From Eledone cirrhosa (taxonomy: Eukaryota): 64,000 nucleotides of DNA. The notes under the pieces were generated by a model. The model saw nothing but the letters and a program-made list of their open reading frames with translations, had not been told where the DNA came from and did no database searches. Of the stretch, positions 15,176 to 62,760 are shown piece by piece (the stretch's first letter is position 1; each line of letters starts with the position of its first letter). The stretch covers positions 21,102-85,101 of the forward strand of contig CAXHJY010000894.1 of assembly GCA_964016885.1 (NCBI GenBank). Reading direction: 5' to 3'. A program made the position numbers and the translations under genes.

Positions 15176-15266
15176 CATAGTTTTAAGAAAAATAAATATT
15201 TGGTTTCACCATATTTATTTCTTCACCAAACTCTAAAAACTGCATGCATACATATATATATATATA

Positions 15267-15459
15267 ACGAAGGAAATGTGGTAAGGAACCAGGTGGACCA
15301 TAACGCACCAAAGTACTCAATACTTAGGGTAGTAGAGTGGGTAATAGGAACAAGTAAGACCCCGACGGCTGAGCTCAAGCCGTTTCGACGGCTAATTCTG
15401 TACAGAATTAGCCGTCGAAACGGCTTGAGCTCAGCCGTCGGGGTCTTACTTGTTCCTAT
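15267..15459 (-). mobile_element. Fold-back half-hammerhead element, copy 1 (perfect 116-bp palindrome at 15344-15459 plus tail)
   Basis: 58-bp arms are exactly complementary around TGT|ACA; contains GAAAC-GGC-ttgagctca-GCC-GTC-ggggtc; flanked by (TA)n; homologous to 33138-33330. Confidence 0.8.
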
Positions 15460-15679
15460 ATATATATATACATGTTGTTATGCTTTGGGAGGGTCATATT
15501 GCCAATAAGAAACAAACGCACCAGTTGCTTTCACTCCAATTTATTATAAATTAAATTTATAAATTTCCGGTTATCGGTTTCAACACACGTTTTCAGATAA
15601 AGAATCTTGCTAAACAAATTCAGAAACGAAATATATATACATGATTTCTTACAAATCAAATAGTTCTAGTCAGAATAAA

Positions 15680-15954: not shown

Positions 15955-16294
15955 CATCATTCATCATCATCATTTCATTTTACGTCCACTTTTTCCCTGC
16001 TTGCAAGGGTGGGACGGGAACTGATTCTGGCTTGATTTCTACAGCTGGATGCCCTTCCTAACACCAACCTCATTTACAGTGAGTGCTGGGTGTTTTTTTG
16101 CCGTGGCACCTCCACGACCACTTTGCAGTGGAATGATAGGGACCCCAGTTCCTATCATCTCATTTCTACAGCTGAGTAAACTGGAGCAATGTGAAATAAA
16201 GTGTCTTGAAACAACACATCACCCGGTCTGAGAATTGAACTCACAACCTTTCGATTGCAAGCCCAATGCTCTAACCACTAAGCTATGTGCCTCC
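15955..16294 (-). mobile_element. SINE family A, full length
   Basis: Reverse complement of 12275-12608 with a (TGA)n tail. Confidence 0.92.
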
Positions 16295-27233: not shown

Positions 27234-27475
27234 TAAGAAATATAAAATATATGTGTAACGGTAAACTTAAAAATTCAAATTACTACATCAATAATAGTAT
27301 TAATGATAAATAAATAAAGGAAGGGGAACAGATAGAAATGAGAGAGAAAGAAAGAAAATGACAAAAGAAGGAACGAAGATATAGTTAAATGTATAACCGG
27401 CAAAGTTACGAAATCAAACTATCACATCAAATTAAATATAATATTAATAATAATAATAATAATAAAGATATATAT

Positions 27476-30400
27476 AGAAATCGTAGAAATGCTAGAGCGA
27501 AAGGAAGTTGATGTATGCTGTGTGCAAGAGACTAGATGGAGAGGAGGGTCTGCTAGAGTCCTTGTAGGAAAAAGCCAGTGCTACAAATTTTTCTGGGTGG
27601 GAAATGACGATGGGATGGGTGGTGTAGGTATACTATTAGCTGACAAGTGGGTAGATAAAGTAATCTCAGTGTACAGGGTAAATGCAAGAATCATTAAACT
27701 CAGACTAGTCCTGAATAAGACAATTACCACAATAATATCAGCTTACGCACCCCAATCGGGGCTGCCAGACGAACTTAAGGATAGGTTTTACGAGTCCCTA
27801 ATACACACTACTGCTCTAACAGACGACAAGGACTTCCTAATCATTGCAGGAGATTTTAACGGACACGTAGGTAAACACTGCGACGGCTTCAATAGAGTAC
27901 ATGGAGGCCATGGAGTTGGCACAAGGAATGAGGAAGGATTCAGACTTCTAGAATTCTGCGACGCCAATGACATGTCGATATGTAACACAAACTTTAAAAA
28001 ACCCGACAACCACCTGATCACCTATAGATCAGGGGAGCACTCTAGTCAGTTAGATTTTATCCTCATCAGAGGACGTGACAGATGGACGGTCGTAAACACA
28101 AAAGCCTTCCCTAGTGAGGAATGTACATCCCAACATAGCTTAGTTGTCAGCGACCTCACGGTCAGAACTAGACGAGCCCTGAAACAGAGGCCAACCTGGA
28201 GAAGAAAGATCTGGAAGCTGAAAGTCCCCTCAACCAGTAACAGATTTAAAGATATTTTACTCAACGCCTACGACAGTAAAGAAGAACAGATAGAGACATT
28301 TAACGTAGAAGAGAACTGGGAGTTCCTAAAAAATAACTTACTAGAGGCGACGGATGAGGTTTGTGGCTGGAGTAAGACCTCAAGCAGGAGGAGAGTGACT
28401 TGGTGGTGGAACAATAAGGTAGATGAAGCAGTCAAGGCCAAGAGACAGGCATGGAAAGAATGGAAGAACGGGGGGAGCAGGGTACATTACATAGAGACCA
28501 AGAGGGAAGCTAGGCGACAAGTATACTTAGCTAGGAGGGAAGCAGAGGATAGAAAATTCAAGCATGTTTTACAACGTGAGGACCAGAAACAGGAGGTATT
28601 CAAGATTGCGAGGCAGTGTGTCAGAGATAGTTGTGATGTCATTGGAGAGAAGTGTATCCGGAATGATAAAGGTGAGCTTGCCCTCACAAGTGCTGAGAAG
28701 AAAGATGCATGGAAGAGTCATTATGATAGATTACTAAATGAGGAGAATGCATGGGAAGAAGAGACCCTACCCCACGTAGACCCTATAGAGGGACCAGCAG
28801 TACAAGTCAGCGGCAGCGTAGTAAGTAAGGCAATCAGAGATATGAAGATAGGGAAGGCAACCGGTCCATCGGGTATAGCTGCCGAGATGCTGAAGGCATC
28901 TGGGTCTGTAGGTCACACTATAACCACACGTATCGTTAACCAGGTAATACTAGAGGGGGCCATACCAAAAGATTGGTGCAGTAGCATCATTGTCAACTGC
29001 TACAAAGGTAAAGGCGATGCACTAGATAGAGGAAACTATAGAGGTATAAAGTTGATGGACCAGGTCATGAAAGTAACAGAAAGAGTTATAGCACAGCTGA
29101 TTAGGGACCGGGTGAATATAGACGAGATGCAATTTGGGTTTGTTCCAGGGAAAGGCACCACTGATGCGCTCTTCCTTGTGAGGCAATTACAGGAAAAGTA
29201 CCTAGCTAAAAGTAAGCCACTCTACTTGGCATTTGTCGACCTTGAGAAAGCCTTTGACAGAGTTCCACGTGCAGTAATCTGGTGGGCTCTTAGAAAACTA
29301 GGAGTAGATGAATGGCTTGTGAAAGCGGTACAAGCCATGTATAGGGGAGCAGTCAGCAAAGTTAGGATTGGCAATGAGTATAGCGAGGAATTTAGCGTAC
29401 AGGTTGGGGTCCACCAGGGCTCTGTTCTTAGCCCTCTCCTGTTCATCATAGTCCTGCAGGCAATAACGGAGGAGTTTAAGACCGGATGCCCATGGGAACT
29501 CCTGTATGCTGATGACCTCGCACTCATAGCTGAATCTATGGTAGAACTAGAGAATAAATTCCAAACCTGGAAGCAGGGACTAGAGAGAAAGGGCCTCAAA
29601 GTCAACATGACAAAGACTAAGGTCCTTATAAGTAGACGAGAAAACAGAACCCAGATCCCCTCAGGGAAATGGCCTTGCTCAGTATGTAGGAAAGGTGTAG
29701 GTAGGAACTCCATTCTTTGCCCCAAATGCAAACAATGGGTACACAAGAGATGTAGCGGGATCTCAGGAAGCTTAATTAAGAATGTAGGATTCACATGCAG
29801 CAGCTGTGCTGAAACAGCAAGCAAACAGCCACAGGAAACAAGTACCACCAATCTCTGGGAGGGCCCTGTAGAAACAGTAGACAGCTTCTGCTACCTAGGT
29901 GACCGAATTAGCAACGGAGGTGGGTGCTCAGAAAGTACAATAACTAGGGTAAGAACGGGATGGAAGAAGTTTAGGGAACTACTACCACTGCTAGCTGCAA
30001 AAGGCTTCTCCCTCAGAATGAAAGGCAGACTGTATGATGCGTGTATCCGAACAGCGATGTTGCATGGTAGTGAGACCTGGGCGCTGAAGGTGGAAGACTT
30101 ACGTAGATTAGAGAGAAACGAAGCCTGCATGCTCCGATGGATGTGTAACAGTAATATACGTGAACGACAAAGCATAAATGAATTGAGAGAGAGACTGAGC
30201 ATAAGAGGAATCAAATGCTGCGTGCAGGAGAGGCGGTTACGCTGGTATGGACATGTGATGCGTATGAAGGATGACAGCTGCATAAAAAGGTGCAGAGCAC
30301 TAGAAGTTGATGGAAACCGCGGAGTGGGGAGACCCAAGATGACTTGGGATGAGGTGATAAAAGCCGACCTTACCCAACTACACCTCTCAAAGTCAATGAC

Positions 30401-30787
30401 ACACGACCGTGACTTCTGGCGTCACGCAGTAATACAGGGTACCCGACCTCCCATGGGTACATGCTGAAGCATATAAACAATATGCCCCCCCCCCCCCCCC
30501 CCCACCCCCCCACCGCAAGGTGGTCGTGGAGGTGCCACGGCAAAAAAGCACCCAGCCCACACTGTAAAGTGGACGTGTAGGCGCCACGAAAAAGCACCCA
30601 GCACTCACTGTAAATGAGGTTGGTGTTAGGAAGGGCATCCAGCTGTAGAAATCAAGCCAGGTCAGTTCCTGTATGAGCAAGGCATGGTCAGCCGACCAGA
30701 CACTGCCCACAACAGGACAACCCGTCTAACCCATGCTAGCGTGGAAGAACGGACGTAAAACGGTGATGATGATGATGATGATGATGA
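27476..30787 (+). mobile_element. RTE-clade LINE, family 1, slightly 5'-truncated, young
   Basis: Uninterrupted ORF, 3' UTR with a C-run and subrepeats, (GAT)n tail. Confidence 0.95.
27489..30467 (+). CDS. RTE ORF2: APE endonuclease + reverse transcriptase with internal PHD-type finger (992 aa; first endonuclease motif TxNV lost to truncation)
   Basis: VQETRW, SAYAPQ, GDFNGHVG, QFGF, FVDLEKAFDRV, GVHQGSVLSP, LYADD, CSVC..CPKCKQWVHKRC..CSSC, RLRWYGHV. Confidence 0.95.
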   Translation: MLERKEVDVCCVQETRWRGGSARVLVGKSQCYKFFWVGNDDGMGGVGILLADKWVDKVISVYRVNARIIKLRLVLNKTITTIISAYAPQSGLPDELKDRFYESLIHTTALTDDKDFLIIAGDFNGHVGKHCDGFNRVHGGHGVGTRNEEGFRLLEFCDANDMSICNTNFKKPDNHLITYRSGEHSSQLDFILIRGRDRWTVVNTKAFPSEECTSQHSLVVSDLTVRTRRALKQRPTWRRKIWKLKVPSTSNRFKDILLNAYDSKEEQIETFNVEENWEFLKNNLLEATDEVCGWSKTSSRRRVTWWWNNKVDEAVKAKRQAWKEWKNGGSRVHYIETKREARRQVYLARREAEDRKFKHVLQREDQKQEVFKIARQCVRDSCDVIGEKCIRNDKGELALTSAEKKDAWKSHYDRLLNEENAWEEETLPHVDPIEGPAVQVSGSVVSKAIRDMKIGKATGPSGIAAEMLKASGSVGHTITTRIVNQVILEGAIPKDWCSSIIVNCYKGKGDALDRGNYRGIKLMDQVMKVTERVIAQLIRDRVNIDEMQFGFVPGKGTTDALFLVRQLQEKYLAKSKPLYLAFVDLEKAFDRVPRAVIWWALRKLGVDEWLVKAVQAMYRGAVSKVRIGNEYSEEFSVQVGVHQGSVLSPLLFIIVLQAITEEFKTGCPWELLYADDLALIAESMVELENKFQTWKQGLERKGLKVNMTKTKVLISRRENRTQIPSGKWPCSVCRKGVGRNSILCPKCKQWVHKRCSGISGSLIKNVGFTCSSCAETASKQPQETSTTNLWEGPVETVDSFCYLGDRISNGGGCSESTITRVRTGWKKFRELLPLLAAKGFSLRMKGRLYDACIRTAMLHGSETWALKVEDLRRLERNEACMLRWMCNSNIRERQSINELRERLSIRGIKCCVQERRLRWYGHVMRMKDDSCIKRCRALEVDGNRGVGRPKMTWDEVIKADLTQLHLSKSMTHDRDFWRHAVIQGTRPPMGTC

Positions 30788-33137: not shown

Positions 33138-33140
<3 letters not shown>

Positions 33141-33330
33141 AAAATGTTCAAGACCCCGACGGCAGGGCTAGCCGTTCCGATGGCTATTTCTGGACTCAGA
33201 AATAGCAATTGAAATGGCTAGCTCTGCCGTCGGGGTCTTGAACATTTTCCTTTTACCCACTCTACTACCCTAAGTATTGAGGACTCTGGTGCATTATGGT
33301 CCATCTGGTCCCTTACCACACTTCCTTCGT
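33138..33330 (+). mobile_element. Fold-back half-hammerhead element, copy 2 (inverted repeat 33138-33251 plus tail)
   Basis: Arms around a GACT loop; GAAAT-GGC-tagctct-GCC-GTC-ggggtc; tail TTACCCACTCTACTACCCTAAGTATTGAG...TTCCTTCGT shared with copy 1. Confidence 0.8.
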
Positions 33331-33340
33331 TATATATATA

Positions 33341-34834
33341 TCATCATCATCATCATCATCATTCATCATTTCATTTTACGTCCGCTTTTCCCTACTTGCA
33401 AGGGTGGGACGGGAACTGATTCTGGCTTGATTTCTACAGCTAGATGCCCTTCCTAACACCAACCTCATTTACAGTGTGCTGGGTGCTTTTTTGCCATGGC
33501 ACCTCCACGAATGATAGGGACTGAGTAAACTGGAGCAATGTGAAATAAAGTGTCTCAAGGAAACAACACATCACCCGGTCTGGAATGATAGGGACTGAGT
33601 AAACTGGAGCAATGTGAAATAAAGTGTCTCAAGGAAACAACACATCACCCGGTCTGAGAATGATAGGGACTGAGTAAACTGGAGCAATGTGAAATAAAGT
33701 GTCTCAAGGAAACAACATATCACCCGGTCTGGAATGATAGGGACTGAGTAAACTGGAGCAATGTGAAATAAAGTGTCTCAAGGAAACAACACATCACCCG
33801 GTCTGGAATGATAGGGACTGAGTAAACTGGAGCAATGTGAAATAAAGTGTCTCAAGGAAACAACATATCACCCGGTCTGGAATGATAGGGACTGAGTAAA
33901 CTGGAGCAATGTGAAATAAAGTGTCTCAAGGAAACAACATATCACCCGGTCTGGAATGATAGGGACTGAGTAAACTGGAGCAATGTGAAATAAAGTGTCT
34001 CAAGGAAACAACACATCACCCGGTCTGGAATGATAGGGACTGAGTAAACTGGAGCAATGTGAAATAAAGTGTCTCAAGGAAACAACACATCACCCGGTCT
34101 GGAATGATAGGGACTGAGTAAACTGGAGCAATGTGAAATAAAGTGTCTCAAGGAAACAACATATCACCCGGTCTGGAATGATAGGGACTGAGTAAACTGG
34201 AGCAATGTGAAATAAAGTGTCTCAAGGAAACAACACATCACCCGGTCTGGAATGATAGGGACTGAGTAAACTGGAGCAATGTGAAATAAAGTGTCTCAAG
34301 GAAACAACACATCACCCGGTCTGAGAATGATAGGGACTGAGTAAACTGGAGCAATGTGAAATAAAGTGTCTCAAGGAAACAACATATCACCCGGTCTGGA
34401 ATGATAGGGACTGAGTAAACTGGAGCAATGTGAAATAAAGTGTCTCAAGGAAACAACACATCACCCGGTCTGAGAATGATAGGTACTGAGTAAACTGGAG
34501 CAATGTGAAATAAAGTGTCTCAAGGAAACAACATATCACCCGGTCTGGAATGATAGGTACTGAGTAAACTGGAGCAATGTGAAATAAAGTGTCTCAAGGA
34601 AACAACACATCACCCGGTCTGGAATGATAGGGACTGAGTAAACTGGAGCAATGTGAAATAAAGTGTCTCAAGGAAACAACATATCACCCGGTCTGAGAAT
34701 GATAGGGACTGAGTAAACTGGAGCAATGTGAAATAAAGTGTCTCAAGGAAACAACACATCACCCGGTCTGAGAATTGAACTCATAACCTTTCGATTGCAA
34801 GGCCAATGCTCTAAACACTAAGCCATGTGCCTCC
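33341..34834 (-). mobile_element. SINE family A expanded by an internal tandem array
   Basis: Intact tail (33341-33508) and tRNA head (34771-34834) bracket the array. Confidence 0.9.
33509..34770. repeat. Minisatellite, 17 x 74-75 bp, derived from the SINE A interior
   Basis: Unit GAATGATAGGGACTGAGTAAACTGGAGCAATGTGAAATAAAGTGTCTCAAGGAAACAACAYATCACCCGGTCTG(A); no spacers. Confidence 0.95.
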
Positions 34835-35161: not shown

Positions 35162-35486
35162 TCGGTTATTTGTCGGAGATTTCTCCATAAGAGCCTTTCT
35201 TCTTATAGTTTGATCTAATTGATTTTTTGTATGGTTAATTATGCTAATTAGAAGAAGAAATAGTATATATTTTATCTGATGATTCTAAAGACATGATTTA
35301 CGATATATTGCTCTGATTTTTTAATTTATTAATTCTTCATAGAGCTTAAAAGTGACCAGTTGCAACATGTATATATCTATAACTTTATGTATATGTTAAC
35401 CTTTATATATATATATATTATATATATATTTATATATTTATATATATATATATATTTATATATTTATATATATATATATATATATA

Positions 35487-36750
35487 CTCCAGATACGTTG
35501 ATGACATACTGATACTCACTTCTTCCCGGGAGATGGCGAATGAAATTCACCAAATCTTTAACGACACTGACCATCACGTCGATTTCACCATCGAACACCC
35601 TGAAGAAGACGGGTCACTCGCCCTCCTCGACTTCCGTATCAACATCTCGGAAGAAGGAGACATAAACACCACCTTCTACCGCAAGGCAGCGTGCAAGGAC
35701 TTATTTGTGCATTACAACTCAGCCCTCCCCAACAACGCTAAGAGAGGCTATGTCCTAAATGAACTTACACGGATCACTAATAGATGCAGCGACCCGATGG
35801 GTGGTCTCACCCATACCACGCAATTCCGTAATCTACTCAAGTCTAATGGATATCCCAAGCGACTGATTAACGGAATTAGAGACCCCAGACCCAATAGACA
35901 GACACCCACTAGAAACTTAGATAAAAGCAGGTGCTTCTTTAAAATCCCCCACCTGAGTGAATATACCACGAACGCCATCCGCAGGGCCATACGGAGGGAG
36001 GGACTTGACATACATTTGGCCCACACAGGACCTTCGCTCCGAAGATGCCTCTCCACCAAACCCGACGAGTCAGATGGGACGTGTTCCCTCAGCAACTGCC
36101 CGATACGGGGGGGCAGATTGCCTACGCACCTATGTCGTATATAAGATTCAATGCGATAAATGTAACAAGTTTTACATAGGTAGCACCATCCGACCCCTAC
36201 ATGTTCGTATCAAGGAACATGTCAACACCAACGCATCTTCCTTCCGTAAACACATCCTTAAATGCGGAAACCCACAGGGCAGACCCTTGGTCACAGTCCT
36301 AGCGACTGAACGCAGCATCGGATCCTTATACACATATACACACACAGTTACACACACATATATATTTACACACACATATTTTACGGCTTTCACACGCTAG
36401 CGCACCCTATTGATTTAACCCAATTGATCAGTAGCTTTTGCCACAGCCTATCACGCGCACGCGCATTCTTTCCCTCGTTTGAATTTTCCCCATAACGGCA
36501 TTCCTATGTTTTAACGACAATACAACTTTCTCCGGCTTAGCCTGTTCCCCCCCCTTTTGGAACTTTCCCCCGTTGATGGGCGTGAGCCCGAAATAGTGGG
36601 ATTAAATCTCCACTACGGTAACCCTTCTACCTTTGTTTTGTTTTCCTTTTTCGTTTCTCTCAATTTTCACTTTTCTCCTATTTCTCACTCACTTCTTACC
36701 TCGAGATTTCCCATCTGCATTGTTGTGGCTTTCTAAACTACATATTTTAT
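35487..36750 (+). mobile_element. 5'-truncated PLE (RT C-terminus + GIY-YIG endonuclease), frameshifted at the G-run ~36107-36113
   Basis: RYVDD, FTIE, LALLD, FYRK, HYNSALP, NGYP; VVYKIQCDKCNKFYIGSTIRPLHVRIKEH (GIY-YIG); flanked by (TA)n. Confidence 0.9.
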
Positions 36751-38432: not shown

Positions 38433-38558
38433 GTAGGAGGTGATTTTTATTGTAGTACAATAAAGCAATGCAGATATTGGATAAGTAGCACTCTACAGTT
38501 TGTAGGACTGGAGTATAAATAATATATAAGATCAAAAGATGGCTAAAAGAGTTCCATG

Positions 38559-38626
38559 TATTTTATTATGCGCATTTCAAAAACAAATATCATGCGATAA
38601 CATTTGCGTTTTCGTCAGATAAAATA
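38559..38626 (-). ncRNA. Type-I hammerhead ribozyme in the inverted 5' arm
   Basis: Minus strand: tattttat-CTGACGA-aaacgcaaat...atttgttttt-GAAA-t-gcgc-a-TA-ataaaata. Confidence 0.8.
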
Positions 38627-38757
38627 GGGAGACATGATATGATATTAGAACTCCGAGGATAAATCTCAAGGATCACAAAAACAAATTTCGTACTGAACTA
38701 CCTGTTAGACTAATCGCCCTCTCTAAATCAGATCTGGGGGTTGTTAGCAAAGCCGTC

Positions 38758-40488
38758 TTGGATAGAATTATCCGACAGGTTCGTTCTAATTGCTCTTCTT
38801 TGAACTTAAATTTATGGTTTGGTACTTCTGAAGTGATTGGCTGGTTCAACAAATTGAATAAGAAAAACAAACAAAAATTTATTCAATTTGATAATGCCAG
38901 CTACTATTCTTCTATTTCGCCCTTACTTCTCAACAATGCTCTATCTTTTGCTTACAAATATTCAGACATCACCACAGATAAACTTCACATCATTCTCACT
39001 GCACGTAAAACCATCCTAGAGTTCAACAATGAATATTGGACCAGAGCTGATACCTCTAACAACTTTGACATCACAATGGGAGCATCCGATTCATCCCAAT
39101 TGACAGATTTAATTGGTATCTTTATTTTGAACTCTTTGAATCTGAAAATTCCTCAACTTCGCGGTGGAATTTATCGTGACGATGGACTCTTTACTATCTT
39201 AAATTGCAACATAGTTAACCTTAATATTATTAAGAACAATATACGTAATCTCTTTAACCGACATAACTTAAAAATTGAATTTGATAACAGCATCAAACTA
39301 GCTAATTTCTTGGATGTATCTCTTAATCTTGACACTGGCCTATATTACCCTTACCATAAAAACAATGAGAACCTAAATTATGTTAATTTTAAATCTAACC
39401 ACCCCACTAATATTAAGAATGCTATAGTTAGTAATATTGGAAAAAGAATATCCAACCTATCTTCTAATAAAAACATCTTTGATGCTAATGCCAATTACTA
39501 TAATAACGCGCTTTCTAAAGCCGGTTATCCTGATAAAATCAAATATAGTAAAGAAACAAATTCTAGATCTTACAGTAGAATAATTAATCATGATCATTCC
39601 AATAACTTTAATAAAAGACCTAGATACAAAAACATAATCTTTCTCCATCTCTATTAATAATATTATTCCTAAATTATTCTTTAGTGCCTTAAATAAATGC
39701 TTCCCTCCCTCACATATCTATAGTAAAATATTTAACAAACACACTATAAAATTTTCCTATTCGACCTCCTCCAACATCTCCAACATTATCTCTAAACACA
39801 ACAATAAAATACTAAATCTCTTCCTTCCAACACTGAATATCATAATAATAGTAATAGTACTCCCGACGTCATTGTTAACTCTAGGTTAATTTCTGCAAAC
39901 CCAAATACAACGTCAAACGCAACTTTGTTAAATGTTCTTAATCCCATTCTAAATCAAGAAACTATTATTCCTATCGTAAATAACTTCTCCAATCCAATTC
40001 ATTCTATAGATAACACTAGGTCACTTGTTAATAACTCTGTTAATTTCTCTAATCGCAATTGTAATTGCCCTGTTAAAAATAAATGTCCTCTCAACAACCA
40101 TTGTCTTGAAAAAAACTTAATCTACGAATGTAAAGTTATAACTGACACCAATTCCTTTACCTATTTTGGCTCCACTTCCACCTCCTTTAAAGCTCGTCTT
40201 TATAATCATCATTCGTCTTTTAAATACCAACTTAAAAGAACCAACACGGCACTCTCAGAACTCATATGGTCCTTGAAACACAAAAATATTAACTATAACA
40301 TCTCTTGGAAGAAGGTTTGTTCTGCTTCTCCATACTTGAATGGTTCTCTATCCAAGACATGCAATCTCTGTTTATGTGAAAAATTTACCATTATATCTAA
40401 TTTAGATTCTATAATAAATAGATGCACTGACTTGTTTTCTCTCTGCTTGCATAAATTCCACAGAACATTCCATAAAGTATACAGCTAA
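38758..40488 (+). pseudogene. PLE RT-endonuclease ORF, frameshifted (pieces 38758..39657 and 39925..40488)
   Basis: FIQFD..YYSSI, FDITMGASD, IYRDDG, NFLDVSLNL, SNHP; CNC..CPL..C, LIY..YFGST, CNLCLCEK, CLHK. Confidence 0.88.
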
Positions 40489-41446
40489 TATCTAATACTT
40501 TACCAATTTAAAATCCTTTTCTCAAAGGCACACATATATATATATACATATATATTTCTTTAAAAATATACCCATCTTTCTACCTTATTTCAATGTTATT
40601 TATTATACATTATATAATACTAGTTACTCATTCTATATCACTCCTATTTATCACTTCCCTTTCTTTCTTTTTTCCTTTTCTTTTTTTCTTTTTCTTTTAA
40701 TTTCTAACCTCTAATCTGTACCTTTTCTTCCTAGATACTTCTCAATTCTCATTATTACTCAGCACAATATATCCTTACTTTATGATATCACCTTGAAAAA
40801 TCCTTCGTAAACATAAACATTTTTTTGACGTTAGATTATTCATCCTCAATTCATTATTTTTCTCTCCCTTTCATGCTCATCTAACTTATACATAATACAC
40901 TTATTCATCCACTCTTCTACTTCTTTTCACAATATTACATTACTATTGTTATATTTTTATATTTTTTTAATAATACATATCAACAATTTCTTTCCATCGC
41001 ACATATTATTAAACCCTTAAATATTATTCTTAATACATATTAACAATTTCTTTTCATCGCACATATTATTATACCCTTCAATATACAAATCTTAATTTAA
41101 CATTATTCTAAATTTTTCTCTTCGTTAATTTTCAAATTCTTTAATTTATATATTATCTTCCAACGGTTTTTTAACCTCTCTATGTAAAACAATATATTTT
41201 TCTCAGTTGTAAAAGCTATCTCTCTCTCTCTATCACCCATCTCTCCTCGAATCTCATCCTTCCTCATTATACTCCTCCCCCTCCACTTTTTACTCATCTC
41301 CCTCTTTTTCATCCTTTCCACCCCCTCAATTTTTATTTTTTTAATTTTTTCCCAATATCACACATTAATCTAAAACTACTTTTCATATGTTGATTTAAAA
41401 CTGCACTATTCACAAGTGGTTTTTAACCTTCATATCATGTCTCCCG

Positions 41447-41515
41447 ATTTTATCTGACGAAAACGCAAATGTTATCGCATGATGATATTTGTTTTTGAAA
41501 TGCGCATAATAAAAT
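41447..41515 (+). ncRNA. Type-I hammerhead ribozyme at the PLE 3' end
   Basis: attttat-CTGACGA-stem II-GAAA-t-gcgc-a-TA-ataaaat; 7-bp stem I, palindromic ATGCGCAT, predicted cut after 41508. Confidence 0.82.
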
Positions 41516-41552
41516 ACATGGAACTCTTTTAACCATCTTTTGATCTTATATA

Positions 41553-43356: not shown

Positions 43357-43498
43357 ACCATGCTGTAAAATGGAGGGGTAGAGAGGGCCCTTGAGTCTAG
43401 TAAGACATCCTCTCTAGTGCTGGTGGCACAAATAAAAGCACCCAGTCCATGCTGTAAAGTGGCGCTGGTGTTAGGAAGGGCATCCAACCAGTGTATCA

Positions 43499-46400
43499 AT
43501 GCCAAAAAGCTTATCAGCACAGCAACAAAACAGCATAGAAAAAAATATGAAGACGTCGCATCTCAGAGTTGCAACACTTAATGTTGGCACTCTCAGAGGT
43601 AGATCTGCTGAAATAGCGGAGATGCTGGAGAGAAGGCAGGTGGATGTGTGCTGCGTGCAAGAGGTGAGATGGAGAGGTGCCTCTGCGAGACTAGTCGCAG
43701 GCAAGCGTCTTAGCTATAAGCTATTCTGGGTAGGTAAGGATGATGGGTTAGGGGGAGTAGGCATTTTCCTGGCTGAGAAATGGATCAATAAGACAATAGA
43801 GGTAGTTCGAGTTAGTAATCGAATAATTAAGCTTAGATTAGTTGTAGGTAGGAGACTACTGACAATCATCTCGGTCTATGCTCCCCAAGCAGGCCTAGGC
43901 AAAGATGAAAAAGACTGCTTTTATGAGCAACTTTTGCAAACAACCACAATGACAGAGGACGGAGACATCGTTATGCTAGCAGGAGACTTCAATGGTCATG
44001 TTGGACAGCTCCAGGATGGTTACACTGGGGTACATGGTGGGCATGGTTACGGTTCAAGAAATGAAGAAGGAGTGAGACTTCTTGAATTTTGTGATGCAAG
44101 TACATTGACTATTTGCAACACAAACTTCCAGAAACCTGCCAATCACCTAATAACCTACAAATCTGGTGAGCACATAAGCCAGATTGACTTCCTGCTAGTT
44201 AGGCAGCGGGACAGGCAGATAGTGTCTAATACCAAGGCATACCCTGGGGAAGAATGTACCCCACAGCATAGGTTAGTTGTTAGTGATATCTCAGTAAGCA
44301 AGAGATGGAATGAGCCATATAGGAAGGTGTGGAGAAGAAAGGTCTGGAAGCTAAAAGACCTTTCACTAAAATTCAAATTTAGGAAAGCCCTTCAAGATGT
44401 ATATGACGAAAAAGAAGACGATTTAGAGACGTATGACATAGATAATAACTGGAAGTTCTTACGTGACAACTTGCTGAAGGCTACTGATGAAACTTGTGGC
44501 TGGAGCAGAGCCCCAACCAGACAGAGAGTGACCTGGTGGTGGAACAGCAGTGTAGATAAGGCTATTAGAGACAAAAGACTAGCATGGAAGGCTTGGAATA
44601 AGGGTGGGAGTAGGGAAGAATATACAGCCACTAAGAGAGAAGCTAGACGTCAGGTGTACTTAGCACGCAGGGAGGCAGAGAGTAGGAGGTTTGCCAATGT
44701 GGTTTGCCAATGTTCTGCGACGGGAAGATCAGAGGCGTGCGGTGTTCCACATTGCAAGGCAGTGTGTCAATGCAAATCAGGATGTTGTTGGTGATAAATG
44801 TGTCCGGGATGATGCCGGTGTACTTAGTGTCACGAATGACCAGAAAAAGGAGGCCTAGAAATGCCATTATGAGAGACTGATGAATGTGGAGAACGAATGG
44901 GAGAGAGAGAAATTACCCTTGGTAGATCCGACAGAGGGACCAGCTATTGAGATTGACGAATATAGGGTCCAAGAGGCGATTAGGGAAATGAAAAATGGTA
45001 AGGCGGCCGGACCATCGGGAATAGTTGCTGAGATGCTGAAGGCATCAGGGGACGTAGGCACTAAACTGGTTGCACGCATAATCAATCAGGCTATATATGG
45101 TGGTGTCATACCCAAAAACTGGTGCAGCAGTATTCTCATAAATTGCTACAAAGGTAAAGGGGATGCTTTGGAGAGGAGCAATTATAGGGGTATAAAACTG
45201 ATAGATCAGGTTATGAAAGTGGCAGAAAGGATTTTAGCACAACTAATTAGAGAAAGGGTCAAACTAGATGAGATGCAGTTTGGTTTTGTGCCTGGGAAGA
45301 GTACAACAGATGCCCTCTTCTTGGTGAGACAAATGCAAGAGAGGTTCTTAGAGAAGAATAAGCCACTATACTTGGCCTTTGTTGACCTAGAGAAGGCCTT
45401 TGATAGGGTACCCCGATCTGTCATCTGGTGGTCCCTAAGGAAGCTGGGTGTTGAGGAATGGCTTGTAAGGACAGTGCAAACTTTGTACAGAGGTACACTC
45501 AGTAAAGTCAGGGTAGGAATGGAGTTTAGTGAGGAATTCCAGATACAAGTAGGAGTACATCAGGGTTCGGTCCTCAGCCCGCTCTTGTTCATTATAGTCC
45601 TCCAAGCCATAACAGAGGAGTTTAAGACTGGCTGTCCATGGGAACTTCTCTATGCTGACGATCTGGCTCTTATGGCAGAATCAGTAGAGGAGCTAGAGAA
45701 TAAATTCCGGCTATGGAAACAGCAGTTGGAAGCAAGAGGACTGAGAGTAAATCTAGCTAAGACAAAAGTGTTGATGAGTAGAAAAGAGGACAAAACCCTG
45801 ATTCCGTCAGGGAAATGGCCATGTTCGATATGCAGAAAAGGAACTGGCATAAATTCTATAAAATGCACACAATGTAGGTCCTGGGTACACAAGAGATGTA
45901 GCGGGATAGCAGGCAAACTAACAGGTAGGGAGAAATATGTATGCAGTAGATGTACAGGGAAATTAGACAGTAGAAGTCGCACCGATAGACACATTTTTCA
46001 AATGCGAGAGGGCGCTATAGAAGTGGTGGATAGCTTCCGGTACCTAGGAGATCAGATTAGCATGGGAGGAGGGTGTTCCGAGGCCATAGTATCTAGAATA
46101 AGGACGGGTTGGAAGAAGTTTAGGGAGCTGCTTCCTCTGTTGACGAAGAAGGGTTTCTCCCTGCGTACGAAAGGCCGGTTGTATGATGCCTGTGTGAGGG
46201 GCGCGATGCTGCATGGTAGTGAGACATGGGCAGCTACCGCAGAAGATATGCGACGGCTGGAGAGAAATGAGGCAAGCATGCTCCGTTGGATGTGCAGTGT
46301 AAATGTGCGTGAACGACCCAGCATAAATGTGTTGAGAGAGAAACTGTGTCTGAGAGGGATAGAATGTAGTGTACGGGAGAGGAGACTGAGGTGGTATGGA

Positions 46401-46636
46401 CATGTGATGCGCATGGAGGATGACCGATGGGTGAAGAAGTGCCAGGAAATGCCAGTTGAAGGAAGACGTAGTAGAGGTAGACCACGAAAAACATGGGCGG
46501 AGGTGGTGAGAACAGACCTCAGATCATTGAAGCTCACGGTGGAGATGACGAGGGACCGTGATGAGTGGAGAGATGCTGTGCTGAATAAGACCCGTCCCAC
46601 CCTTGCAAGCAGGGAAAAGCGGACGTAAAATGATGA
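43499..46636 (+). mobile_element. RTE-clade LINE, family 2, near full length; ORF broken by a 13-bp duplication (44688-44713) and a TAG at 44856
   Basis: RVATLNVGTL, VQEVRW, GDFNGHVG, FVDLEKAFD, LYADD, PHD-type CSIC..CTQCRSWVHKRC..CSRC; ends GGAAAAGCGGACGTAAAATGATGA. Confidence 0.95.
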
Positions 46637-53735: not shown

Positions 53736-56700
53736 ATCATCATCATCATCATCACCGTTTTACGTCCGTTCTTCCACGCTAGCATGGGTTAGACGGGGTG
53801 TCCTGTTGTGGGCAGTGTCTGGTCGGCTGACCATGCCTTGCTCATACAGGAACTGATTTGGCTTGATTTCTACAGCTGGATGCCCTTCCTAACACCAACC
53901 TCATTTACAGTGAGTACTGGGTGCTTTTTCGTGGCGCCTACACGTCCACTTTACAGTGTGGGCTGGGTGCTTTTTTGCTGTGGCACCTCCACGACCACCT
54001 TGCAGTGGGGTGAGTGGGGGCATATTGTCTATATGCTTCAGCTTGTACCCATGGGAGGTCTGGTACTCTGTATTAATGCGTGACGCCAGAGGTCATGGTC
54101 GTGTGTCATCGCCTTCGGGAGGGGTAATTGGGTAAGGTCGGCTTTTATCACCTCATCCCAAGTCATCTTGGGTCTCCTCACTCCGCGGTTTCCATCAACT
54201 TCTAGTGCTCTGCACCTTTTTATGCAGCTGTCATCCTTCATACGCATCACCTGTCCATACCAGCGCAACCGCCTCTCCTGCACACAGCATTTGATTCCTC
54301 TTATGCTCAGTCTCTCTCTCAATTCATTTATGCTTTGTTGTTCGCGTATATTACTGTTACATATCCATCGGAGTATGCAGGCTTCGTTTCTCTCTAATCT
54401 ACGTAAGTCTTCCACCTTCAGCGCCCAGGTCTCGCTTCCATGCAGCATCGCTGTTCGGATACACGCATCATACAGTCTGCCTTTCATTTTGAGGGAGAAG
54501 CCTTTTGCAGCTAGCAGTGGTAGTAGTTCCCTACACTTCTTCCATCCCGTTCTTACCCTAGTTATTGTACTTTCTGAACACCCACCTCCGCTGCTAATTC
54601 GGTCACCTAGGTAGCAGAAGCTGTCTACTGTTTCTACAGAGCCCTTTCAGAGATTGTTGGTACTTGTTTCCTGTGGCTGTTTGCTGTTTGCTGTCCCAGC
54701 ACAGCTGCTGCAAGTGAAGCCTACATTCTTAATTAAGCTTCCTGAGATCCCGCTACATCTCTTGTGTACCCATTGTTTGCATTTGGGGCAGAGAATGGAG
54801 TTCCTACCTACACCTTTCCTACATACTGAGCAAGGCCATTTCCCTGAGGGGATCTGGGTTCTGTTTTCTCGTCTACTTACAAGGACCTTAGTCTTTGTCA
54901 TGTTGACTTTGAGACCCTTTCTTTCTAGTCCCTGCTTCCAAGTTTGGAATTTCTTCTCTAGTTCTACCATAGATTCAGCTATAAGTGCGAAGTTATCAGC
55001 GTACAGGAGTTCCCATGGGCATCCGGTCTTAAACTTCTCTGTTATTGCCTGCAGGACTATGATGAAAAGGAGGGGGCTAAGAACAGAGCCCTGGTGGACA
55101 CCAACCTGTACACTAAATTCCTCGCTATACTCATTGCTAATTCTAACTTTGCTGACTGCTCCTCTATACATGGCTTGTACAGCTTTCACAAGCCATTCAT
55201 CTACTCCTAGTTTTCTAAGAGCCCACCAGATTACAGCACATGGAGCTCTGTCAAAAGCTTTCTCAAGGTCAACAAATGGCAGGTAGAGTGGCTTACTTTT
55301 AGCTAGGTACTTTTGCTGTAACTGCCTCACAAGGAAGAGGGCATCAGTGGAGCCTCTTCCTGGTACAAACCCAAATTGCATCTCATCTAGTTTCACCCGG
55401 TCCCTAATCAACTGTGCTATAACTCTTTCTGTTACTTTCATGACCTGGTCCATCAGCTTTATACCTCTATAGTTTCCTCTATCTAGTGCATCACCTTTAC
55501 CTTTGTAGCAGTTGACAATGATGCTACTGCACCAATCTTTTGGTATGACACCTTCTAGTATTACCTGGTTAACAATACGTGTGGTTATAGTGTGACCTAC
55601 AGACCCAGATGCCTTCAGCATCTCGGCAGCTATACCCGATGGACCGGTTGCCTTCCCCATCTTCATACCTTTGATTGCCTTACTTACTACGTTGCTGCTG
55701 ATTTGTACTGCTGGCCCCTCTATAGGGTCTACTTGGGGTTGGGTCTCTTCTTCCCATGCATTCTCCTCATTTAGTAATCTATCATAATGACTCTTCCATG
55801 CATCTTTCTTCTCAGCACTTGTGATGGCAAGCTCACCTTTATCATTCTGGATACACTTCTCCCCAATGACATCACAATTCTCTCTGACACACTGCCTCGC
55901 AATCTTGAACACCTCCTGTTTCTGGTCCTCAAGTTGCAAAACATGCTTGAATTTTCTATCCTCTGCTTCCCTCCTAGCTAAGTATACTTGTCGCCTAGCT
56001 TCCCTCTTGGTCTCTATGTAATGTACCCTGCTCCCCCCGTTCTTCCATTCTTTCCATGCCTGTCTCTTGGCCTTAACTGCCTCATCTACCTTATTGTTCC
56101 ACCACCAAGTCACACTCCTCCTGCTTGAGGTCTTACACCAGCCACAGACCTCATCCGTCGCCTCTAGCAAGTTATTTTTTAGGAACTCCCAGTTTTCTTC
56201 TACATTGAATGTCTCTATCTGTTCTTCTTTACTGTCGTAGGCGTTGAGTAAAATATCTTTAAATCTGTTACTGGTTGAGGGGTCTTTCAGCTTCCAGATC
56301 TTTCTTCTCCAGGTTGGCCTCTGTTTCCAGGTTCATCTAGTTCAGACTGTGAGGTCGTTGTCAACTAAGCTATGTTGGGATGTACATTCCTCACTAGGGA
56401 AGGCTTTTGTGTTTACGACCGTCCATCTGTCACGTCCTCTGATGAGGATAAAATCTATCTGACTAGAGTGCTCCCCTGATCTATAGGTGATCAGGTGGTT
56501 GTCGAGTTTTTTAAAGTTTGTATTACATATCGACATGTCATTGGCGTTGCAGAATTTTAGAAGTCTGAATCCTTCCTCATTTCTTGTGCCAACCCCATGG
56601 CCTCCATGTACTCTATTGAAGCCGTCGCAGTGGTTACCTACGTGTCCGTTAAAATCTCCTGCGATGATTAGGAAGTCATTGTCGTCTGTTAGAGCAGTAG

Positions 56701-56886
56701 TGTGCATTAGAGACTCGTAAAACCTATCCTTAAGTTCGTCTGGCAGCCCCGATTGGGGTGCGTAAGCTGATATTATTGTGCCATCGTCATTTCCCACCCA
56801 GAAAAATGTGTAGCACCGACTTTTTCCTACAAGGACTCTAGCAGACTCTCCTCTCCATCTAGTCTCTTGCACACAGCATACATCAA
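53736..56886 (-). mobile_element. RTE family 1 copy, 5'-truncated, with an in-frame endonuclease deletion and frameshifts
   Basis: ORF pieces 56342..56992, 54647..56170 and 54038..54487 closely match 27489..30467. GNDDG joins directly to TIISAYAPQ; YADD has become YADN; (TGA)n tail. Confidence 0.95.
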
Positions 56887-56932
56887 TATATATTATATAT
56901 ATATTATATATTATATATATATTATATATATC

Positions 56933-57253
56933 GGAGGCACATGGCTTAGTGGTTAGAGCATTGGCCTTGCAATCGAAAGGTTGTGAGTTCAATTCTCAGA
57001 CCGGGTGATGTGTTGTTTCCTTGAGCAAGACACTTTATTTCACATTGCTCCAGTTTACTCAGCTGTAGAAATGAGATGATAGGGACAGGGTTCCCTATCA
57101 TTCCACTGCAAAGTGGTCGTGGAGGTGCCACGGCAAAAAAATGAGGTTGGTGTTAGGAAGGGCATCCAGCTGTAGAAATCAAGCCAGCATCATTTCTCGT
57201 CCCACCCTTGCAAGCAGGGAAAAAGCGGACATAAAATGAAATGATGATGATGA
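56933..57253 (+). mobile_element. SINE family A
   Basis: Head, CORE-like centre and RTE tail present; small internal deletion. Confidence 0.9.
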
Positions 57254-57748: not shown

Positions 57749-60175
57749 CATTATCTAGATATAACATTAAATCTCAACACATGTCTTCACTATCCATTTC
57801 ACAAGTTGAATGAAAACTTAAACTATGTCAGCTTTAACTCTAACCACCCCAAATCTGTTAAAAATACTATAGTAAACTCTGTTCAATCACGTATCTCTAG
57901 AATCTCATCTAATAAAAAGATTTTCGACGAAAAAGCCCATTATTACAATGAAGCGTTAGCTAGAGCAGGATATAGTGATAAAATTATGTACATAGATAAT
58001 GATAAACAAATTAAACAAAATAACAACTATTTTAATTATGGCCACAACCTTAACAACTATAATAGAAAGCATTACAATAATTCCAAAAGCCATAAAAGAA
58101 ATAGAACTAGGAATATAATATGGTTTGCCCCCCCTTTCTCACTAAACATTAAAACCCACATTGCTAAACTATTTTTTAAAGCTCTCGATAATCGCTTCCC
58201 TAGAACACATAGGTATCACTCAATTTTCAATAGACATACTATAAAACTAACCTACTCATCCACCAAAAATTTAGCGCAAAATATTAATAGAATAAATAAC
58301 AGGAACTTAAAACCTAGCGATAATAGCATAAATAATATCCAAGTTAACAAATGTAACTGTAGAGATAGATCTAAATGTCCCTTAAATAACAACTGCTTAG
58401 TTAAAAATATAATATACAACTGTAATGTTAAAACGGACGTTAATTCTTTTAACTACGTTGGTTCTACATCGACGGAATTTAAACTTCGCTATAACAACCA
58501 CAAGAATTCTTTCACAGATCCATCCAAAAAATCTTCAACAGCACTATCAGGCGTACTCTGGCAACTTAGGCATGATAACGTTAGATATTCGACGACTTGG
58601 AATATAGTTTCAAGGGGGATTCCTTTTAATTCATCCTCTGAGACATGTGACCTCTGTGCAGAGGAGATATTCTTTATACTAAAATCTAAAAATTCCCTTA
58701 ATCTACGGACAAATTTATTCAGTTGATGCAGACATAGATTGAACTCAACGTTTAAATATAAATTTAAATTTAAAATGTAATTATGTTTGTTTTGATTTGA
58801 TTTGTAATTATTTATGAAACTAGCCGATAAATCTTTCGATTTCTTCTTTTTATTAAACATTCTTTTTATTAAAACATTCTTCATGAATAATTAAACTACC
58901 CTAAAAGCTGATGCTCCAAATATATCGAATTAAATTTTAAACTAGATAAACTTCTATATTATATATAAGAACTTATGTAGACCAAATGGGTATCCTAAAC
59001 TTTTGGAATGATTTCTGCTAGACAGGATTTGGTAAACAATTTTTGTTTTATCTGTTTCGACTCTGATGCTTATGATGATCTTGGCAATATATTGTCAATT
59101 AACTTTGAAAGGCTGATCTCTGTGTTTTATTTGTATTATTTTTTAATATTTTTTAATATTTTGTAATATTTTTTATTTTTAATATTAAATGTTTTAGTTT
59201 TCTGTTTATTTATTTATTTATTTTCTTGTCTCTGATATTTTTATTTTTATTTTTATTTTTATTTTTATTAATATATTGAAATCTGTTCTCTATTTCTGCT
59301 TGATCGACAATCAGGTAGAATAAAGACAAGAATAATATTGTTAAAATTAATATAGACTCTATATATATATGTGTATATATACACACATATATGTATACTT
59401 GAATTTTTATAGCACAACGAGAATGTTTTCGTGTGAATTGGGAGTTTGTTTATAATTATGATATAAACATATGAATTTTTAAAAACTAGACATAAGATCA
59501 TTACTTTTCACACATTATAGATACATGTCTCATTCATGAATACTGGTACTTACATTATAATGCCTGTTTTATACGAACTAATATTTTCTACGGATAAAAC
59601 ATAGTGGTTTTAAATTCTGCATCGTTTATGTCTGGTTATGTTTCATTTTCTCCTTTTCATTCTCTCTTTTTTCTCTCTATATAACGGCTATTTTCTCTCT
59701 TAACTACATACATCTCTCTTTACATTAATACTAGAGCTAAATAAATAAATAAATAAATAAATAAATGTATCAACCGATACTCAACTTCCTAATTTCTCTA
59801 TCTATCTCTATCAATCTCTTTCTTTTTTCCTCTCTCTATATATATTTCTCTCTGTTTCTTTACATGAAGTTCTTCTCTTTATCTATCTTTCTATATCCCT
59901 CTATTTAGTCACATGCATTTCTTCTTTTTCTTCGTTTCTCTTTCTTTCTCTCTTTATCTCTTTCTTTTTACAACTGTCCACATTTTTTACTACCAAATCA
60001 ACCTCCCAAATGCAAGGTGATTGAAAGGTATGTCGTATCTATTTATTTATAAGACTGTTTATATTGTAATTTTGTCTGAAGATGGCATAACATATTGTTA
60101 ATATGATATCCCTGAAATATATATAACAAAATAAATATGGTTTTATAAATATAGTTTCCATTTATTTAATATCAT
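57749..60175 (+). mobile_element. 5'-truncated PLE (RT thumb + Cys linker + GIY-YIG, ORF 57806..58726), same broad group as 38523-41552
   Basis: SNHP, ALARAGY, IWFAPPFS, CNCRDRSKCPLNNNC, IIY..YVGST, CDLCAEE; long 3' UTR; terminal hammerhead. Confidence 0.9.
60069..60132 (+). ncRNA. Type-I hammerhead ribozyme at the PLE 3' end
   Basis: attttgt-CTGAAGA-tgg...cct-GAAA-t-atat-a-TA-acaaaat; perfect 7-bp stem I; predicted cut after 60125. Confidence 0.78.
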
Positions 60176-60344
60176 ATATTATATATATATATATTATATA
60201 TATATTATATATATTATATATATATATTATATATATTATATATATTATATATATTATATATATTATATATATATATTATATATATATATATATTATATAT
60301 ATTATATATATATATATTATATATATTATATATATTATATATAT

Positions 60345-61872
60345 GCTTTCGACAGTAAGGAAGAGCAATTAGAATCGTACAATATAGAGGAACAGTGGGA
60401 ATTCCTGAAAGCAAACCTGCTGATGCCGGCAGACGAAGTCTGTGGCTGGACCAGGCCTGTAGGTAGGAGGAGAGTAACATGGTGGTGGAATAGTAAGGTG
60501 GAGGGGTCAATTAAGGCCAAAAAGCAGGCTTGGAAAGTATGGCGGGATGGGGGAAGCAGAGAAGACTATCAAGTGGCCAGGAGGGAAGCTAGGAGACAAG
60601 TATACTTCGCAAGAAGGGAAGCTGAGGAAAGAAAGTTCAAGCATGTTCTACAACGCGATGACCAAAAACGTGAGGTGTTCAGGATTGCTAGGCAATGCGT
60701 CGAGGAAAACCGTGATATTGTCGGGGAGAAGTGTGTACTAAACGACGATGGCACACTTGCCATCACCGACGCTGATAAGAAGGTAGCTTGGAAGTGTCAC
60801 TATGAAAGGCTACTAAATGAGGAGAATAAATGGGAGAAAGACAGTCTCCCCCATATCGACCCAATAGAGGGACCAGCAGTGTTAGTCGAGGGGAGTATAA
60901 TAAGTAAGGCAATCAAGGATATGAAGACGAGTAAGGCGGCTGGGCCTTCGGAAATAGTTGCTGAGATGCTGAAGGCATCTGGCACGGTGGGACACACCAT
61001 GGTCACCCGCATAGTTAACCAAGTCGTACAGAATGGGGTTGTTCCGAAGGACTGGCATAGCAGCATCATCGTTAACTGTTATAAGGGTAAAGGAGACGCC
61101 CTAGATAGGAGTAACTATAGAGGCATTAAATTAATCGACCAGGTCATGAAGGTCACGGAAAAAGTAATAGCGCAACTAATCAGAGAGAGAATTGACCTAG
61201 ATGAAATGCAGTTCGGGTTTGTGTCAGGCAAAAGTACCACAGACGCTCTTTTCATAGTACGACAACTACAGGAGAAGTACCTAGCTAAAGGTAAACCCCT
61301 CTACTTAGCTTTTGTCGACTTGGAGAAAGCCTTTGACAGAGTCCCCCGCTCCATTATCTGGTGGGCTCTTAGAAAACTAGGCGTTGACGAATGGCTTGTG
61401 AGGGCTATACAAGCCATGTATAAAGAAACAGTCAGCAAGGTTAGAATTAACAACGAATATAGTGAAGAGTTTAGCGTAAAAGTTGGCGTCCATCAGGGCT
61501 CTGTTCTCAGCCCCCTACTATTTATTATTGCCCTTCAGGCTATCACAGAGGAGTTCAAGACAGGCTGCCCATGGGAACTCCTATACGCAGACGACCTGAC
61601 ACTCATAGCGGAATCATTGGACGAGCTAGAGAAGAAATTCCAAACATGGAAGCACGGCCTAGAGTCAAAAGGACTTAAAATTAACCTGGCTAAGACCAAA
61701 GTACTAGTTTGTAGGAAAGAAAACAAGGTGGCGGTCCCTTCTGGGAAATGGTCGTGCTCGGTGTGTAGGAAAGGCGTAGGTAGAAACTCCATTTTATGTC
61801 CTAAATGCAAAGTATGGGTGCATAAAAGATGTAGTGGGATCACAGGTAAGCTAACTAAGAACATAGATCTAT
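60345..61872 (+). pseudogene. Central segment of an RTE (linker + RT + partial PHD), inverted relative to its 5' part
   Basis: ORF 60423..61874: VTWWWN, QFGF, DLEKAFD, LYADD, CSVC..CPKCKVWVHKRC; stops at the ATAGATCTAT junction. Confidence 0.92.
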
Positions 61873-62760
61873 AGGTGATCAGGTGATTGTCACGTTTTTT
61901 GAAGTTAGTGTTACAGATAGTTAGGTTATTTGCATCACAGAATTCCAGGATTCTGGAGCCTTCCTCATTTCTAGTACCAAACCCATAGCCTCCATGGATT
62001 TCGTCGTAGCCGTCACAATGTTGTCCAACGTGACCATTTAGGTCGCCTGCAATAATTATATAGTCACTGTCGGATATTTGGGAGGTAGTTAGCATCAGTG
62101 TCTCATAGAATCTGTCTTTTATAGTGCCGGGCAGTCCGGATTGGGGTGCGTACGCAGATATTACTGTCACCGTAGTTCTATTGAGGACAAGTCGTATTTT
62201 AATTATTCTGTCGTTCACTCTATTTACGTCTATTATCTTATCTGCCCACTTTTCTGCTACCATGATTCCTACTCCACCCAGCCCATCGTCGTTTCCCACC
62301 CAGAAAAGCTTATAACATCGTTTTTTACCCTCAATGAACCTAGCAGACCCACCCCTCCACCTGGTCTCTTGAATACAACAAACATCGACCTCCTTACGTT
62401 CAAGCATTTCTACAACCTCGTTAGCGCGACCCTTTAGGGTGCCTACATTTATGGTACCAACTCTGATGTTTTGGATTGCGTTTGGGGGTGGGGGGCGGGG
62501 GGCTATGGGGTTATGTTAGCCGTCCGCGGTCGAAACAATGAGTGCTCGCATTCTCGTCCAAGAGGTGAATTTGTCTTTATCTTTGGCATTGTCGCTGAGC
62601 GTCCAGATTTTTCTCTCTCTCTCCTCCACTCTCCAGGATTCCGCAGTCCATCCATCCATCATATATCGAAAGGCAACCAGGCAAGCGATAGTATAGGCCT
62701 CTGGCTTCTGATTGGTCCGCGTAATAATACTGGTGATGCGTGGGGGCTCTGGCTTATGAA
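61863..62760 (-). pseudogene. 5' UTR + endonuclease segment of the same RTE lineage
   Basis: IRVGTINVGTLKGRANEVVEMLERK, IQETRW, SAYAPQ, GDLNGHVG, NHLITYRS; GC-rich leader containing CCAATCAG. Confidence 0.9.

Follow-up and report, generated by a model that had tools for sequence, protein, structure and literature searches.

The inverted-plus-tail architecture of Penelope-like element (PLE) insertions is already published (PMC8557442; PMC3846280; PMC11167929). EN+ PLEs carry an inverted, 5'-truncated copy placed head-to-head and a one-sided tail of 30–40 nt, form pLTRs from partial tandems and have palindromes at the inverted junction (PMC8557442; PMC3846280), for which self-priming on an antisense template has been proposed (PMC3846280). 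In the Poseidon element PAc of Anolis carolinensis the PLE protein extends both target strands in vitro, beginning at two internal start sites, one at either edge of the tail; the RNA runs 3' of the start sites towards the ORF, the target is AT-rich and cleavage by the ribozyme is unnecessary in vitro (PMC11167929). PLEs of the Hydra clade combine a C-terminal GIY-YIG domain without CCHH, a DKT motif, a CxCX5C linker, CxxC and CxH with a (TA)n target and a hammerhead at the end, and are generally shorter than 3 kb (PMC8557442). We analysed a stretch of 64,000 nt from Eledone cirrhosa (GCA_964016885.1, contig CAXHJY010000894.1, positions 21,102 to 85,101 of the forward strand; hereafter the window) containing a palindrome that is itself an ordinary PLE stub, the element being a Hydra-like Penelope-like retrotransposon that was inserted head-to-head in 5'-truncated form. 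It shares with the EN+ PLEs the inverted truncated copy, the one-sided tail, the pLTRs and the palindromic junction; it differs from them (PMC8557442; PMC3846280) in that its tail is 80 nt long instead of 30–40 nt and most copies of the family are stubs of ~190 bp ending at one hot spot.

The perfect 116-bp palindrome claimed by an earlier note on this DNA was recovered at 15344–15459, with two arms of 58 bp that are 100% complementary and have no spacer; the outermost 3 bp of each arm (TAT) are common to the target repeat or the tail. An asymmetric extension reaches 15267, and the whole stub is flanked on both sides by (TA)7 (15253–15266 and 15457–15470), in line with the (TA)n target that the note had named. 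It is the sole perfect palindrome of at least 24 bp in the window besides one TA/CA repeat, its DNA fold has a z score of -20, and the string GAAAC-GGC-ttgagctca-GCC-GTC-ggggtc, which the note had placed on each strand, matched twice, once per strand, against 0 matches in 100 shuffles. Arm positions are counted back from start site 1 (TTCC|TA). The one-sided 80-nt tail (15267–15346, minus strand) is bounded by start site 1 (TTCC|TAT) on one side and start site 2 (TTCGT|TAT) on the other, and is followed by the tailed arm, -1 to -57 from site 1, with the hammerhead 3' half (15347–15403, minus strand), and by the untailed arm, -57 to -1 (15400–15456, plus strand). Both arms end at -57, 57 nt upstream of site 1, and overlap without a loop by the shared GTAC (15400–15403), which in the parent reads TTCA-GTAC-AG. 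On the plus strand the untailed arm comprises the 3' strand of stem II (15409–15416), GAAA (15417–15420), stem III (15420–15438), C17 (15439, with the predicted cut at 15439|15440), the 3' strand of stem I (15440–15444) and the distal TTCC (15453–15456). The ribozyme 5' half and a TATA-like site are absent from the stub. The exact GTAC junction occurs at 305 loci and, among 20 sampled, in at least two subfamilies with different tails. A second stub of the same family (33139–33330, plus strand), 83% identical and from another subfamily, has the same ends, a different junction and its subfamily differences mirrored on both arms.

Genome counts were made by sequence-pattern matching against the 3.0-Gb genome. 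A 29-nt tail motif gave 24,509 exact matches, and 5' hammerhead halves gave 2,664. Thirty tail loci among the matches listed were mostly short head-to-head stubs with varied centres; in some of them the sense sequence continues upstream across ~1 kb of 3' UTR and reaches a GIY-YIG frame. One such long copy (L061) has a stop-to-stop frame of 710 residues, a single ORF with a reverse transcriptase (RT) and, at the C terminus, a GIY-YIG domain, in which the motifs RLRWR, HSDKT, YRDD, CNCPDRSIC, VIYQC/YIG, CNLC and CKH were found and a CxxC ahead of YIG is absent by inspection. The PLE origin proposed by the note was thereby upheld, and so was the existence of longer parents attached to a PLE ORF; the CTGANGA that it had placed next to the hairpin is not there. 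Nor do the termini match those of a DNA transposon or Helitron, the ends being ACGAAGG and GGAAC and the arms running into the PLE ORF. The tandem unit of L068, 3,057 bp in size, consists of hammerhead, site 1, 80-nt tail, site 2, 93 nt, ATG, ORF, UTR and hammerhead; TAT follows each site, and in read-through copies the tail continues for the same 93 nt to the ATG of the ORF, with only 53 exact matches reading through site 2. A pLTR formed by partial tandem is present in L068, L203 and others, and two loci (L020 and L025) have a non-duplicated, L1-like form of insertion. Homologues numbered 403, nearly all nameless and many with PF26215; a Pfam search of three PLE frames gave no match at E 0.01. 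L061 shares the domain organisation, the DKT motif and the cysteine motifs of the Hydra clade and has RWR (in RLRWR) where that clade has RWK (PMC8557442). The family also has the (TA)n target of the clade, and its unit of 3,057 bp exceeds the length general for it. Hydra-1_oBim was considered as the identity of the family and rejected, as its listed hammerhead differs (PMC8557442).

Several further arrangements were observed. At L075 and L201-L202 (C1:27009300-27011300) half hammerhead, tail and ORF start form a head-to-tail array of 257 bp, which resembles a retrozyme in its size but contains no complete ribozyme. At L017 (1-1500) the upstream side of a family arm is fused to the endonuclease end of another PLE family, which suggests a template jump between PLE families. 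The window itself contains a second Hydra-like PLE family, also head-to-head (38540–41545), whose hammerheads, at 38624 (minus strand) and 41448 (plus strand), have the canonical CTGACGA and a long stem II and whose ORF pieces are 38–51% identical to L061, a fragment of a third related PLE ORF (57749–58738; 39% identical to L061), and a 5'-truncated PLE of another clade after (TA)n (35484–36620) with an RT end and a GIY-YIG domain with CxxC, behind which lies a hammerhead-like motif with an apparently shortened core (~36570–36620). Other repeats include a tandem array (33509–34775) in which one 74-bp piece of a SINE-like repeat is present in 17 near-identical copies, the tRNA-like head of this repeat occurring at 16228–16285, and an uninterrupted LINE-like frame of 1,041 aa with endonuclease, RT and a cysteine-rich insert (27342–30467), with related pieces at 43475–46628, 54038–56995 and 60135–62515.

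Parent copies read ACCCC-YTGANAA-GYTCGGCTA-(about 38 nt)-TAGCCGTC-GAAAC-GGC-ttgagctc-W-GCC-GTC-GGGGT, and comparison with them bore out the assignment of the arms to the 3' half of a hammerhead, which by its sequence is a predicted type I hammerhead ribozyme with a 3-8 pair, GAAA and NUH in the predicted core. The hairpin GACGGCTAATTCTGTACAGAATTAGCCGTC, taken in the earlier note for stem II, is something else: in the parents stem II consists of GYTCGGCTA paired with TAGCCGTC around a loop of ~38 nt. As each arm in the window holds only the 3' strand of stem II and 9 nt of that loop, the central hairpin is the inversion junction and not a ribozyme helix. The arm ends do agree with the cDNA stop that had been placed shortly beyond the 3' strand of stem II, and the predicted parent with ACCCC-CTGANGA directly before the hairpin had 0 matches in the genome with one mismatch allowed. 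Among 56 distinct parent arms the core was U3-A8 (TTGANAA) in 39, a C3-A8 mismatch (CTGANAA) in 17 and CTGANGA in none. The three helices around this core had 89.7% of cells paired, compared with 25–51% when slid, and the minimum-energy fold of the parent is a three-way junction, with an unremarkable fold energy (z = -1.17). Stem I is invariant and its 8-nt internal loop varies; no double-sided change was seen among 11 close parent copies in a covariation analysis. Rfam returned no hammerhead match in the window at the gathering score and no hammerhead-family match for the parent at E 10. A U3-A8 core occurs in the Schistosoma (Cercyon) PLE (PMC4209133), and U3-A8 hammerhead variants are reported to be active in vitro (PMC3088659). 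The parent shares with these variants U3-A8 instead of C3-G8; it is not a minimal dimeric motif, since its stem III is full, its stem II loop is long and its stem I has an internal loop. The Hydra-clade hammerheads listed in file S2 of PMC8557442 are all ctgaNga, in contrast to the U3-A8 or C3-A8 core and 38-nt loop II found here.

The arrangement of the two arms bears on how the inversion was made. The earlier note held that a single cDNA folded back and primed its own second strand, with the ribozyme helix as primer. That arms nearly always match speaks for such an origin, 78 of 90 arm pairs differing at 0 or 1 diagnostic base, when random pairing of arms would give 78% differing at two or more, and so does the correlation of arm lengths, 48 of 100 full hammerheads among the matches listed being in head-to-head pairs with long arm against long arm. 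This likeness and length pairing fits one RNA, or RNAs of one source, copied from both target ends. In 56 short junctions at loci picked by tail only (a few double-counted or disturbed by indels), fold-back geometry allowed the tailed cDNA in 24, the untailed one only in 16 and neither in 16, the window stub included. Eight CCCC-GTC-GGGG junctions are compatible with a 3-nt loop. Fold-back needs a loop of at least 3 nt and a primed arm that is the longer one, however, whereas the junction in the window is a loop-free 4-nt overlap between equal arms, and blunt or 1-nt centres (CCCC|GGGG, CCCC-W-GGGG) are common. The untailed arm was as often the longer (tailed longer in 28 of the 56, untailed in 22, equal in 6), where stem III served as the join, 35 loci had the loop of the tailed arm and 29 that of the untailed arm (three loci in both lists), and at L063, L064 and L065 the long, ORF-bearing arm is the untailed one. 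Moreover, each arm can bear its own extra G with filler between, the arms of L086 come from different subfamilies, a clear exception to the general likeness, and the exact end of the copied arm at site 1 would go unexplained. Fold-back as a general rule is contradicted by the junction data, which also argue against the self-priming proposed in PMC3846280, and we regard it as quite unlikely; the symmetry of tailed and untailed arms favours two separately primed cDNAs.

Arm ends clustered at two positions. Of 162 ends, 98 fell between -52 and -63 (57 of 92 tailed and 41 of 70 untailed arms), with a mode at -58, and only 5 between -64 and -99; among 46 sites joined directly to (TA)n, none started upstream of about -62 (hand count, with a pattern reaching -66). 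The base at -58 is the A within TCAGT or TTAGT, a context that we take to be initiator-like, and a TATA-like TATTTAAA was read from the sequence 29 to 31 nt upstream of this A; a similar TATA/Inr pair is described for a rotifer pLTR (PMC3846280). Both arms reach -58 in 2,814 junctions. Reverse copying of a 5' cap is expected to leave an extra C on the cDNA, seen as G on the other strand. The first untemplated cDNA base past -58 was C in 21 cases and T in 4 (p = 0.0009 for 21/25; hand count of 100 arms in the first 50 listed of the 2,814 junctions), and an extra base on both arms, GACT-C-filler-G-AGTC, was counted by hand at 7 of 50 loci listed (p = 0.006). Genome-wide, raw G:A at -59 was 87:13, a ratio that overstates the cap signal since the opposite arm supplies part of the G (CTG|AGT stands in about 8 of 26 cases with G); the control at -57 (14 G, 35 C and 51 T of 100) is confounded by the opposite arm likewise, and the cap reading draws on neither value. 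Several of these tallies are hand counts from 100 matches listed, mostly from contig C1. Judged by sequence context and the added base, the ends at -58 likely represent the capped 5' start of the RNA, inside hammerhead loop II. Numerous arms stop elsewhere, either on templated bases at -59 to -63 or at -52 to -57, which would mean that the 5' end is spread over ~10 nt or that ends have been trimmed.

The second position, -17, immediately follows the predicted cut GUC|G. Very short palindromes number about 400; of the first 55 listed, 28 had both arms ending at -17 (hand count), 21 of them with diverse untemplated filler and 7 blunt, the blunt ones being ambiguous by one base. The first filler base at -17 ends had C:T = 6:17, unlike that at -58 (p = 1e-4). 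All 55 loci with 1-nt filler were sorted by subfamily: 47 belonged to two subfamilies with U3-A8 throughout, 7 to the C3-A8-rich subfamily and 1 stayed unassigned, compared with 37 and 58, respectively, in a background of 100 listed, an enrichment of -17/-17 junctions in the all-U3-A8 subfamilies of 47/54 against 37/95 (odds ratio 10.5, p = 6e-9). Nine independent head-to-tail rejoins were found at 30 read-through loci, starting at -17 (3), at -54 to -62 (5) and elsewhere (1), as expected if the enzyme jumps from RNA ends. The -17 class likely derives from RNA cut by the predicted ribozyme. The most abundant subfamily sampled (L031, L063-L065, L076 and others) has the C3-A8 mismatch in 13 of 21 parents and yet has been amplified most, so cleavage may be dispensable.

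The same pile-ups could arise if two cDNAs were primed and the RT halted at RNA structure or bound protein and not at RNA ends. The interval -52 to -63 belongs to a predicted stem II extension, in its 3' strand, -17 is the foot of stem III and the ends scatter over ~10 nt, all as halting would have it; RTs, furthermore, add untemplated C also without a cap. Yet C predominates only at -58 and not at -17, stem III is identical across the three subfamilies compared while the -17/-17 junctions come from all-U3-A8 subfamilies, which makes a plain stall at -17 unlikely, though read-through transcription may vary from one subfamily to another, and the head-to-tail rejoins start at the same two places. 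We consider halting unlikely as the explanation of both classes. That the stub is copied as a unit of its own, as a non-autonomous element of fold-back MITE, Helitron-like or retrozyme kind, draws on the recurrence of one exact junction at 305 loci and on the fixed ends. DNA transposons have terminal inverted repeats, and Helitrons have TC...CTRR ends and an A|T target. The ends of the stub are not mutual inverted repeats and TC...CTRR is absent; junctions are highly varied, the GTAC junction is shared by two subfamilies whose tails differ, the arms pass gradually into PLE ORFs, and the stub has neither the ribozyme 5' half nor the TATA-like site, all of which leaves unit copying highly improbable. 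A non-LTR retrozyme was rejected, the locus being a single stub with half ribozymes and not tandem units with complete hammerheads. Just as improbable is that long palindromic insertions lost their centres by later deletion. Long head-to-head copies do exist and some junctions have microhomology, but deletion would account neither for ends at one base (-58 or -17) nor for the added G nor for a dependence on the 3-8 pair, and the copy in the window has identical arms and an unmutated tail.

Twin-primed cDNAs on a capped PLE RNA, joined head-to-head, here via GTAC, are on balance the probable explanation as a whole. According to this scheme an endonuclease would cut (TA)n, and each target end would pair by TAT with site 1 or site 2, so that two cDNAs would be primed on the element RNA, the first at site 1 and the second 80 nt downstream of it, at site 2, the template being one RNA or RNAs of one source. 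Both cDNAs would run off the capped 5' end at the initiator-like A in hammerhead loop II, and their 3' ends would be joined by microhomology, in the window probably by annealing of the self-complementary GTAC after the loss of one base. We put forward more tentatively, and doubt rather than expect, a strong-stop variant of twin priming in which the PLE would replicate in a retrovirus-like manner without LTR synthesis. A promoter inside hammerhead loop II would start the capped mRNA at -58, so that the 5' copy of the ribozyme would be incomplete and could not cut, and the complete downstream ribozyme would cut at -18|-17, leaving a terminal redundancy of 41 nt. cDNAs from the two start sites would transfer to this redundancy and yield long copies, and the tens of thousands of mini-palindromes would be failed transfers that record cap and cut to the base. 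The frequent C3-A8 mismatch in the abundant subfamily counts against this variant.

In L1 twin priming, each of two target ends primes a cDNA, and the two cDNAs become joined through microhomology. The proposal made here shares both features; it differs from L1 in having a fixed second site, which the first cDNA usually passes, with duplication of the arm as the result. The PAc system corresponds to this family in its two internal start sites bounding the tail, its RNA running on towards the ORF and its AT-rich target; there, extension of both target strands was observed, while twin priming is what we infer here from genomic copies (PMC11167929). TAT follows both start sites in the present family and matches the (TA)n target, whereas the start sites of PAc have no such homology, and the ATG lies 93 nt beyond the tail, unlike in PAc (PMC11167929). 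Genomic copies of the present family often end at the ribozyme cut site, whereas the PAc study found no RNA reads ending there (PMC11167929). The literature searched, with thin coverage of subscription papers, held no account of cap or cut-site footprints in PLE insertions, and the accessible parts of bioRxiv 10.64898/2026.07.22.740005 and PMC2377424 contained nothing bearing on junctions. The family yields base-level genomic footprints of symmetric two-ended priming and of a probable capped start within the ribozyme, together with a class of insertions that ends exactly at the predicted cut site and tracks the 3-8 pair. Each footprint pins a single, testable base, and the evidence that the family offers on how PLEs insert and whether their ribozyme acts is unusually sharp and open to test.
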